In this document: positions 351 to 1,432 of the stretch, piece after piece
Layout: every line of letters begins with the position of its first letter
Position numbering within the stretch: the first letter of the stretch is position 1
Virus genome (UHGV): UHGV-0229026
DNA from: a virus
Length of the DNA stretch: 14,698 nucleotides
Strand: one strand, 5' to 3'
The notes under the pieces: model-generated
Seen by the model: the letters and a program-made list of their open reading frames with translations, nothing else
Told to the model about the DNA's origin: nothing
Databases searched by the model: none
Made by a program: the position numbers and the translations under genes

Positions 351-782
351 ATGTCTTACGCCACACCGGAACAGTTCATCAGGGCATTCAGTGAACGCGA
401 GGCACGCACACTGACGGATGAAGACATGACGGGATTCATCGACGAAGAAAAACTGGCCTCCGCGCTTGCACGCGCCAGTGCCCAGATTGATGGCTATCTG
501 GTGGGGCGTTACCGGACCCCGTGGCCTGACAGCCCGGGGAGTCTGGTGGGTTACTGCTGCGATATCGCCCGTTATCACCTGGCGACCGATTACCGTATCT
601 GCTCAGAAGAAATTCAGATGCGCTACCGGGATGCCATCCGCTTTCTGGAGAAAGTTGCGGCAGGACAAATCAACCTCGGACGGGATACGTCCGGCAGCGT
701 GATCCAGTCATCGTCACAGGTGCGTATCCGCTCCGGCTCCCGTCAGTTCGGGCGTGAGTCCACACGGGGAGGTGCATTCTGA
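351..782 (+). CDS. Mu gp36-like (DUF1320-type) head-completion/virion protein
   Basis: 143-aa ORF; AAGGAG Shine-Dalgarno about 10 nt upstream of ATG at 351; starts 4 nt after the upstream stop; position and size match the small gene preceding gp37/sheath in Mu-like tail clusters. Confidence 0.6.
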   Translation: MSYATPEQFIRAFSEREARTLTDEDMTGFIDEEKLASALARASAQIDGYLVGRYRTPWPDSPGSLVGYCCDIARYHLATDYRICSEEIQMRYRDAIRFLEKVAAGQINLGRDTSGSVIQSSSQVRIRSGSRQFGRESTRGGAF

Positions 783-835
783 TTACTGAAATTGAACGGG
801 CGCTGGTTGAGCGTCTGCGCTGTGGTCTGGGGCAT

Positions 836-1432
836 ATGGTGCAGGAGGTCCGCACCTATGCCGGTGAACTGGATGAAGACCCGGGCCGGATTGTTCGCAG
901 CCTTCCGGCAGCCTGGGTGACGTTCGGCGGCATCGTGAAAACCGAACGCTATTCCACGTCACGCCGGAAATACATTGCCACCGGACGCTTTGTGGTTGTG
1001 GTGGGTGATTACAACACCCGCAGCGAACAGAGCGCCAGACAGGGAGGCACCGTCCGGGATGAAGTCGGGGCAAACCAGCTGGTTGAATCCGTCCGCCGCC
1101 TGCTGACCGGTCAGGATTTGGGGCTGGAGATTGATTATTTCGAACCCGGGCGGGTCAGAACGCTGTTTAACACCGGCGTGGCAGAGCGGGCAATGTCCGT
1201 ATTTGCCTGTGAGTTCGATACCCGCTGGGTGGAGCACGCGCTGGCGAACGGCAAATGGCCGGAGCGCGGCGCAGAAGCGGATCGCCTCTTCAACCGCTAC
1301 CACGGCAGGCTGTCAGACCCTGACCCGGAACTGCTGAACCTTGGCATCCGGTACCAGGTGCAGGACAGCGACGCTGAAATATCAGGGCTGACTGAATTAA
1401 GAGAGCAACAGCATGAACAAAATGAAGGTTAA
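836..1432 (+). CDS. Mu gp37-like virion morphogenesis protein; true start probably upstream (about 779-782) at a non-ATG codon
   Basis: 198-aa ORF from first ATG at 836, which has no good SD. The same frame is open back to 758, and a strong GGAGG (768-772) sits 6 nt before in-frame CTG 779 and 9 nt before ATT 782; the upstream translation (ITEIERALVERLR...) looks protein-like. Confidence 0.6.
   Translation: MVQEVRTYAGELDEDPGRIVRSLPAAWVTFGGIVKTERYSTSRRKYIATGRFVVVVGDYNTRSEQSARQGGTVRDEVGANQLVESVRRLLTGQDLGLEIDYFEPGRVRTLFNTGVAERAMSVFACEFDTRWVEHALANGKWPERGAEADRLFNRYHGRLSDPDPELLNLGIRYQVQDSDAEISGLTELREQQHEQNEG

Follow-up and report, generated by a model that had tools for sequence, protein, structure and literature searches.

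A tail-terminator gene of Mu-like Escherichia coli prophages probably initiates at a CTG codon overlapping the stop codon of the adaptor gene

Where does the gp37 protein of this Mu-like prophage begin? The gene lies in a 14,698-nucleotide stretch of viral DNA (UHGV-0229026), which was analysed whole and is called the window here, and the public records give two answers for identical DNA. In the newer RefSeq records, PGAP places an identical CDS at 779..1432 ('DUF1834 family protein', WP_077757674.1) and translates its first codon, CTG, as Met. Older RefSeq records give 836..1432 ('phage protein Gp37', WP_032300897.1), and for E2348/69 both starts are annotated, in two assemblies. The exact 217-aa product is found in NCBI, on 198 contigs; the 198-aa form is found in NCBI, IMG, ENA, Logan and UniRef, on 464 contigs. 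The CTG start is already public in RefSeq as an evidence-guided computational call, and what follows is a gene-start correction, not a discovery. The literature was searched for reports of a CTG start in a Mu-like prophage, with nothing relevant returned, and no paper or experiment on WP_077757674.1 was found; PMC4648390, on reinitiation at non-canonical codons, is eukaryotic and was set aside. What we add is the history of the codon, a TTG-to-CTG change with a single origin and continued selection, together with the structural cost of the short form and the identity of the product as a tail terminator.

In a Mu-like transposable prophage of E. coli, the window makes up the module for head completion and the tail. 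Six complete E. coli records match its bases 300-1500 at 100% identity, and among the 5,426 complete E. coli genomes 55 have a relative that is 93-100% identical. The gene order is gp36, gp37, DUF2635 and sheath (1648..3069), so that gp37 sits between the adaptor gene and the sheath gene, the position that characterises the Mu Gp37 family. A megablast of bases 300-1500 against the phage collection gave no match, and a tblastn of the gp37 protein against it gave only seven distant phage records, with Mu absent from the matches at E 1e-5; the collection thus offers no cultured phage of the CTG clade. The features of the gp36/gp37 junction are collected in Table 1.

Table 1. Features at and around the gp36/gp37 junction, in window coordinates
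Feature	Position	Strand	Basis or remark
gp36 (head-tail adaptor)	351..782	+	PF07030 1.4e-32; PHROG_195 head-tail adaptor; RefSeq CDS
gp36 3' end: last sense codon TTC, stop TGA	777-779, 780-782	+	
In-frame TGA closing the gp37 frame upstream	755..757	+	Sequence, translation
Shine-Dalgarno site GGGGAGGTG, core GGAGG 768-772	766..774	+	In gp36 codons for Arg-Gly-Gly-Ala
CTG, proposed gp37 initiation codon	779..781	+	Pfam position 1; TTG in sister lineages; RefSeq CDS 779..1432
ATT (Ile2), alternative near-cognate start	782..784	+	Sequence
19 codons for N-terminal helix alpha-1, lost if the start is ATG 836	779..835	+	AlphaFold2 model; invariant residues; selection
ATG for Met20, start in older annotations	836..838	+	M20 conserved; poor Shine-Dalgarno site; WP_032300897.1
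Full gp37 (tail terminator) CDS, 217 codons + TAA	779..1432	+	PF08873 165.6 bits; Foldseek 9khy

Because an in-frame TGA closes it just upstream, the gp37 frame is open from 758, as the preliminary description had stated, and the start must lie at or after that position. According to the ORF listing, the in-frame codons from 758 to 835 include no ATG, GTG or TTG, which leaves ATG 836 as the first canonical start. The preliminary description had pointed instead to CTG 779 or ATT 782, with a GGAGG core 6 nt before the former and 9 nt before the latter, and all of these coordinates hold. It is also correct that CTG 779 overlaps the gp36 stop as cTGA: the co-directional gp36 and gp37 share a -4 stop/start overlap (779-782), the layout of a coupled pair. 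The ATGA-type couplings to which this overlap had been likened are real, occurring as -4 overlaps at 3453 and 8813, and -1 overlaps are present at 6272 and 9870. All 30 of the E. coli-type loci that were compared have an identical arrangement of the junction. That the CTG is a sequencing error or a private mutation is ruled out, the codon being present in 30 loci and 24 alleles.

Two other places in the same gene cluster invite a comment on annotation. The start of the DUF2635 gene (1413-1655) is ambiguous: PGAP begins it at ATG 1446, and a start at ATG 1413 gives a 20-nt overlap with the 3' end of gp37 and an 80-aa product, residues 1-63 of which align to positions 1-63 of the 64 in PHROG_208. 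The longer, gp37-overlapping form is annotated in some relatives (L009 and Klebsiella phage L004), and the Shine-Dalgarno scores are -4.6 for 1413 and -7.6 for 1446. Directly 5' of the tape-measure gene (3999..6272), where tail-assembly-chaperone genes have their conserved frameshift, a second ORF, 3851..4009, comes after ORF 3453..3836; it lies in the -1 frame, which is open from ~3755. PGAP lists these as two separate hypothetical proteins, and on a quick read of the sequence of these ORFs (3453-4009) a canonical slippery heptamer was not obvious.

Shine-Dalgarno strength was scored as the predicted pairing (dG) of the 18 nt upstream of each start with the 16S anti-Shine-Dalgarno sequence. 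The value before CTG 779 is -12.3 kcal/mol, which is the strongest of the 16 starts examined in the cluster and falls in the top 0.12% of all window positions; the motif GGAGGTG stands 6 nt before the CTG, at a functional spacing. Before ATG 836 the value is -4.7, against a background of -2.8 ± 2.5. The Shine-Dalgarno site of this ATG, said earlier to be lacking, is poor and its score is near background; a G-rich tract is present 3 nt upstream. The strong site does not reflect base composition, since GGAGG occurs only 14 times on the + strand of the whole window, compared with 26 ± 5 times in mononucleotide shuffles, and is under-represented. Several of these 14 occurrences stand just before gene starts, for example at 768 and 6258. 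The site is conserved across the E. coli clade and in most of the relatives with TTG. The predicted RNA fold of 735-845 was no stronger than shuffled controls (z = -0.27), with no sign of a hairpin occluding the site, and a variant of coupling that works through RNA unfolding is thus left without support.

The protein itself indicates that the sequence upstream of ATG 836 belongs to it. PF08873 (Phage_Mu_Gp37) matches well above its cut-off of 25 bits, over profile positions 2-148 of 149, and as position 2 aligns at ATT 782, position 1 corresponds to CTG 779. An alignment of homologue N-termini had been suggested as a check, and its outcome favours the upstream start: nearly all of the 120 homologues listed begin M-I-T-x-I-E-x-A-L-x-x-R-L at the codon equivalent to 779. 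The impression that the upstream-extended peptide is genuine protein sequence was sound, for the ITEIERALVERLR segment is present in nearly all of these 120. In an alignment of 40 diverse members, E6, R12, L13, G16 and G18 are invariant, all of them upstream of ATG 836, and Met20, the residue encoded by that ATG, is a conserved internal residue found in at least 90% of the sequences. The AlphaFold2 model of gp37 has a mean pLDDT of 85, and residues 2-20 form one helix with a block pLDDT of 96. A start at ATG 836 would, according to the model, delete the entire first helix.

Comparison of the fold also identifies the protein. The top PDB matches in Foldseek are the Mu terminator structures 9khy (E 3.3e-8) and 9lj8 (to E 1e-7), with a probability of 1.0, followed by T5 p142, the R2 pyocin collar and lambda gpU. 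The gene at 779..1432 encodes a tail terminator of the Mu gp37 family. It shares with Mu gp37 (PDB 9khy, 9lj8; PF08873) the Pfam family, the fold and the gene order gp36-gp37-DUF2635-sheath, and differs from it in sequence, with only 16-17% identity once the structures are aligned. When PDB sequences were searched with a profile of the gp37 family alignment, nothing was returned at E <= 0.01 and only a spurious match of 0.18 at E <= 10, so that the link to Mu gp37 was recovered only via fold comparison; NCBIfam gave no hit for gp37. In Mu, gp37 is a hexameric tail terminator docked on the dodecameric adaptor gp36, with 6 copies of gp37 and 12 of gp36, whereas sheath and tube each form 30 hexameric rings, or 180 copies (PMC11915804). 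By analogy, the present protein would form a hexameric ring capping tube and sheath, an arrangement known for Mu only (PMC11915804).

If the upstream segment is still made as protein in carriers of the CTG, it should show selection at the amino-acid level. Across codons 2-19 of the CTG clade, a minimum of 10 synonymous and 4 non-synonymous events was inferred (omega ~0.16), giving, with 28% expected from the share of synonymous sites, a binomial P of 0.001; no more than 14 inferred events enter this test. The non-synonymous changes are confined to positions 4 and 19, both of which vary across the family, and omega for codons 20-157 in the same clade is similar (~0.2). An earlier test with 23 alleles gave a pN/pS of 0.46 for codons 2-19, with a non-significant hand count (about P = 0.08); P = 0.001 was reached only once the deeper CTG allele L110 had been added. 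The excess of synonymous changes argues that the segment is still translated, and selected as protein, in CTG carriers. Five invariant residues and a selected segment thus lie upstream of the first canonical start, as expected of a gene with a near-cognate start.

Relatives in other hosts show what the codon at this position used to be. Klebsiella phage ST405-OXA48phi1.1 reads GGGGGTGCATTTTGATTATC, with a TTG that overlaps the TGA and is annotated as the start, and TTG occupies exactly the position equivalent to 779, in a TTGA overlap, in Citrobacter, Yersinia, Morganella, Providencia, Xenorhabdus and Klebsiella relatives. When one genome per species was surveyed, eight relatives among the enterobacteria (from Trabulsiella, Intestinirhabdus, Buttiauxella, Xenorhabdus, Photorhabdus, Morganella (two) and Edwardsiella; L011-L018) likewise had TTG at the same position and GGAGG six nt upstream. 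A second enterobacterial clade has TTG one codon earlier, and the more distant beta-proteobacterial members mostly start with ATG or GTG. One member of the survey, from Trabulsiella odontotermitis (L011; 1501; P0022), has a canonical TTG start, yet its public protein (201 aa, 'phage protein Gp37') begins at an internal Met; the error of a truncated start in the gp37 family is therefore not confined to CTG carriers.

A pattern scan of IMG/VR gave 45 contigs, of which four or five were chance matches that lie outside gp37; CTG was present in 21 of the gp37 loci, each of them of the E. coli type LITEIERALVERLRCGLG, and TTG in 19-20, which were of other sequence types. Sampling of complete E. coli genomes across 93-100% identity gave CTG at nine of nine loci. 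When the complete-genome, IMG/VR and Logan loci were combined, there were 24 distinct CTG alleles, and in a neighbour-joining tree of codons 20-200 these grouped as a single clade surrounded by TTG lineages, and none of the 24 TTG alleles fell inside it. Among the alleles with TTG, those of the Citrobacter type (81-85% protein identity) come closest, along with Yersinia (73%). A single CTG clade implies that the change from TTG happened once and was then retained. It amounts to one T-to-C transition, silent in gp36, where TTT becomes TTC (Phe). At codon 2 the CTG clade has ATT or ATC and the TTG lineages have ATH, which does not discriminate between starts at 779 and 782.

The prophages that carry the CTG have also been moving. 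Those near-identical to the window's occupy at least six different insertion sites: they adjoin carB and dtpB, and interrupt rhsC, a plasmid methyltransferase gene and the DNA-circularization gene of another prophage. So many sites indicate that CTG carriers were recently mobile. The window's own flank past ~14515 differs from all of them, and its AT-rich 183 nt are collinear with none of the 5,426 complete E. coli genomes; taken together, the varied flanks point to many recent independent insertions. The right end of the prophage, at ~14515, reads ...GAAGTTACA and terminates in CA, as the ends of Mu do. Just inside it, where Mu carries accessory genes, lies a 366-aa ORF (13305-14405) with no Pfam, NCBIfam or PADLOC match. 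A 14100-14698 query hit 1,660 E. coli genomes, and in many of these the match is to part of this ORF (within 14100-14378); they far outnumber the genomes with this prophage.

The baseplate region of this copy looks less regular. A 330-aa ORF (10918-11910) carries the Mu Gp48 domain PF10076 on residues 21-199, followed by an unmatched C-terminal extension of ~130 aa; in the PGAP annotation the gp48-like baseplate gene, 10954..11517, is flagged as a pseudogene of the YmfQ family ('missing C-terminus'). The tail-fibre gene that follows is short, at 267 aa. The baseplate/fibre junction may be rearranged, and this copy of the prophage may be defective.

Taking these results together, we think it likely that gp37 is translated from CTG 779, within a probably coupled cTGA overlap, and that the ancestral codon was TTG. 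The first part of the mechanism would be the very strong Shine-Dalgarno site, which would place the ribosome at the CTG for the initiator tRNA to read as fMet. The cTGA overlap would probably add to this by delivering ribosomes that have just terminated on gp36. Among coupled genes for subunits of a single complex, -4 and -1 nt are typical overlaps (PMC6728339, PMC10666635, PMC12548453). The ancestral TTG, in a TTGA overlap, would have become CTG through the gp36-silent transition in the ancestor of the E. coli lineage and would have been kept since. A likely consequence is a low output of gp37, which may be tolerable or even useful at 6 copies per virion; a weak start fits the need for few copies, and the family's habitual TTG points the same way. 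Several considerations count against initiation at CTG 779. CUG, like AUU, AUC and AUA, initiates at 1-2% of the AUG level in E. coli reporters (bioRxiv 10.1101/063800), and by that analogy it would be a poor initiator here too. In addition, the pseudogene flag on the gp48-like gene leaves the viability of this prophage copy in question.

The proposal of a non-ATG start overlapping the upstream stop is supported by Pfam, the homologues, the AlphaFold2 model and selection, whereas its two candidate codons, CTG and ATT, are not separable by sequence. The anatomy of the junction, the orthology of the codon, the monophyly of the CTG alleles, the purifying selection and the structural role of the upstream segment were obtained directly; that CTG 779 rather than ATT 782 is the codon used is what we infer, as are the contribution of coupling and the level of expression. 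Initiation at ATT 782, the next near-cognate codon once TTG had become CTG, would give a product one residue shorter. A distance of 9 nt from the Shine-Dalgarno core is still in the working range, codon 2 is always AUH in the gp37 family, and AUU, which matches CUG in reporter efficiency, is the sole non-canonical start confirmed in E. coli, in infC and pcnB (bioRxiv 10.1101/063800). Nevertheless we consider a start at ATT unlikely: the orthologous start in sister lineages is the codon at 779, the 6-nt spacing of the CTG is closer to the optimum, and the conserved Ile2, preserved by a CTG start, would be lost. PGAP also picked CTG.

The infC and pcnB starts are instructive in other respects. 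As in gp37, there is no canonical start at the conserved N-terminus, the codon is one base away from AUG and a Shine-Dalgarno site is present, although the mismatch to AUG is at the first base in CUG and at the third in AUU. The gp37 codon further differs in lying within a 4-nt stop/start overlap and in belonging to a phage structural gene rather than a host regulatory gene. As with infC and pcnB, a low intrinsic efficiency of initiation is to be expected. Near-cognate starts such as these are subject to IF3 discrimination. It is conceivable, if rather doubtful, that the CUG was fixed and has been kept by selection as an IF3-sensitive throttle holding the terminator far below sheath and tube; the strongest Shine-Dalgarno site of the cluster and the coupling to gp36 would then act together with the CUG. 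In its layout the gp36/gp37 junction resembles coupled pairs with ATGA, GTGA or TTGA, being a co-directional -4 overlap between genes for contacting subunits (adaptor and terminator), with the Shine-Dalgarno site inside the upstream gene. It differs from them in that the overlapping start of the probably coupled gene is CTG.

A start at ATG 836 would yield a 198-aa protein lacking helix alpha-1 and would make the upstream segment an untranslated relic, possibly in a decaying prophage. This ATG is the first canonical start, the short form is the one annotated on the larger number of contigs, and a flagged pseudogene elsewhere in this copy would fit decay. We regard this reading as improbable. 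Not only is the Shine-Dalgarno site poor (-4.7) and Met20 conserved as an internal residue, but the 19 missing residues hold the five invariant positions and the helix modelled with a block pLDDT of 96, and codons 2-19 are under purifying selection in the 24 CTG alleles (P = 0.001). Decay is further opposed by the whole-gene omega of ~0.2 and by the many insertion sites of CTG carriers. Nor does a mixture of two N-terminal proteoforms, one full-length but minor, initiated at CTG or ATT, and the other shorter, initiated at ATG 836, appear at all probable; the G-rich tract 3 nt before ATG 836 would suit it, but the weak Shine-Dalgarno site gives no sign of selection for a start signal at 836, and the Mu tail terminator is a single-species hexamer (PMC11915804).

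If -1 ribosomal frameshifting directly ahead of the gp36 stop fused gp36 to gp37, no start codon would be needed, and the gp37 frame is suitably placed for this (-1 relative to gp36 and open over its last 22 nt). Such a fusion was rejected as barely credible, since direct reading of 758-779 in the gp36 frame found no slippery heptamer of the form X XXY YYZ, the starts of sister lineages at this position are ordinary ones (TTG, ATG or GTG), and gp36 (12-mer) and gp37 (6-mer) are separate proteins in Mu virions (PMC11915804).

The choice of start matters in practice. Most Prodigal-type pipelines yield the 198-aa form, without the first helix of the tail terminator, and the truncated protein would mislead structure prediction, expression cloning and family alignments. 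Initiation at CTG 779 does not challenge current understanding; it would be an instance of a near-cognate start in an overlapping and probably coupled gene pair. For E. coli, the locus is a naturally occurring system in which to study near-cognate initiation and translational coupling, because a single T-to-C change divides the CTG clade from its TTG sister phages in an otherwise identical context. If the selected, IF3-sensitive form of the proposal were verified, this would be the first natural CUG start to be confirmed by experiment in a genetic element of E. coli, with the TTG sister phages as built-in controls. As the change is silent in the overlapping gp36, the locus also illustrates how overlapping genes can allow the start codon of a neighbour to drift.
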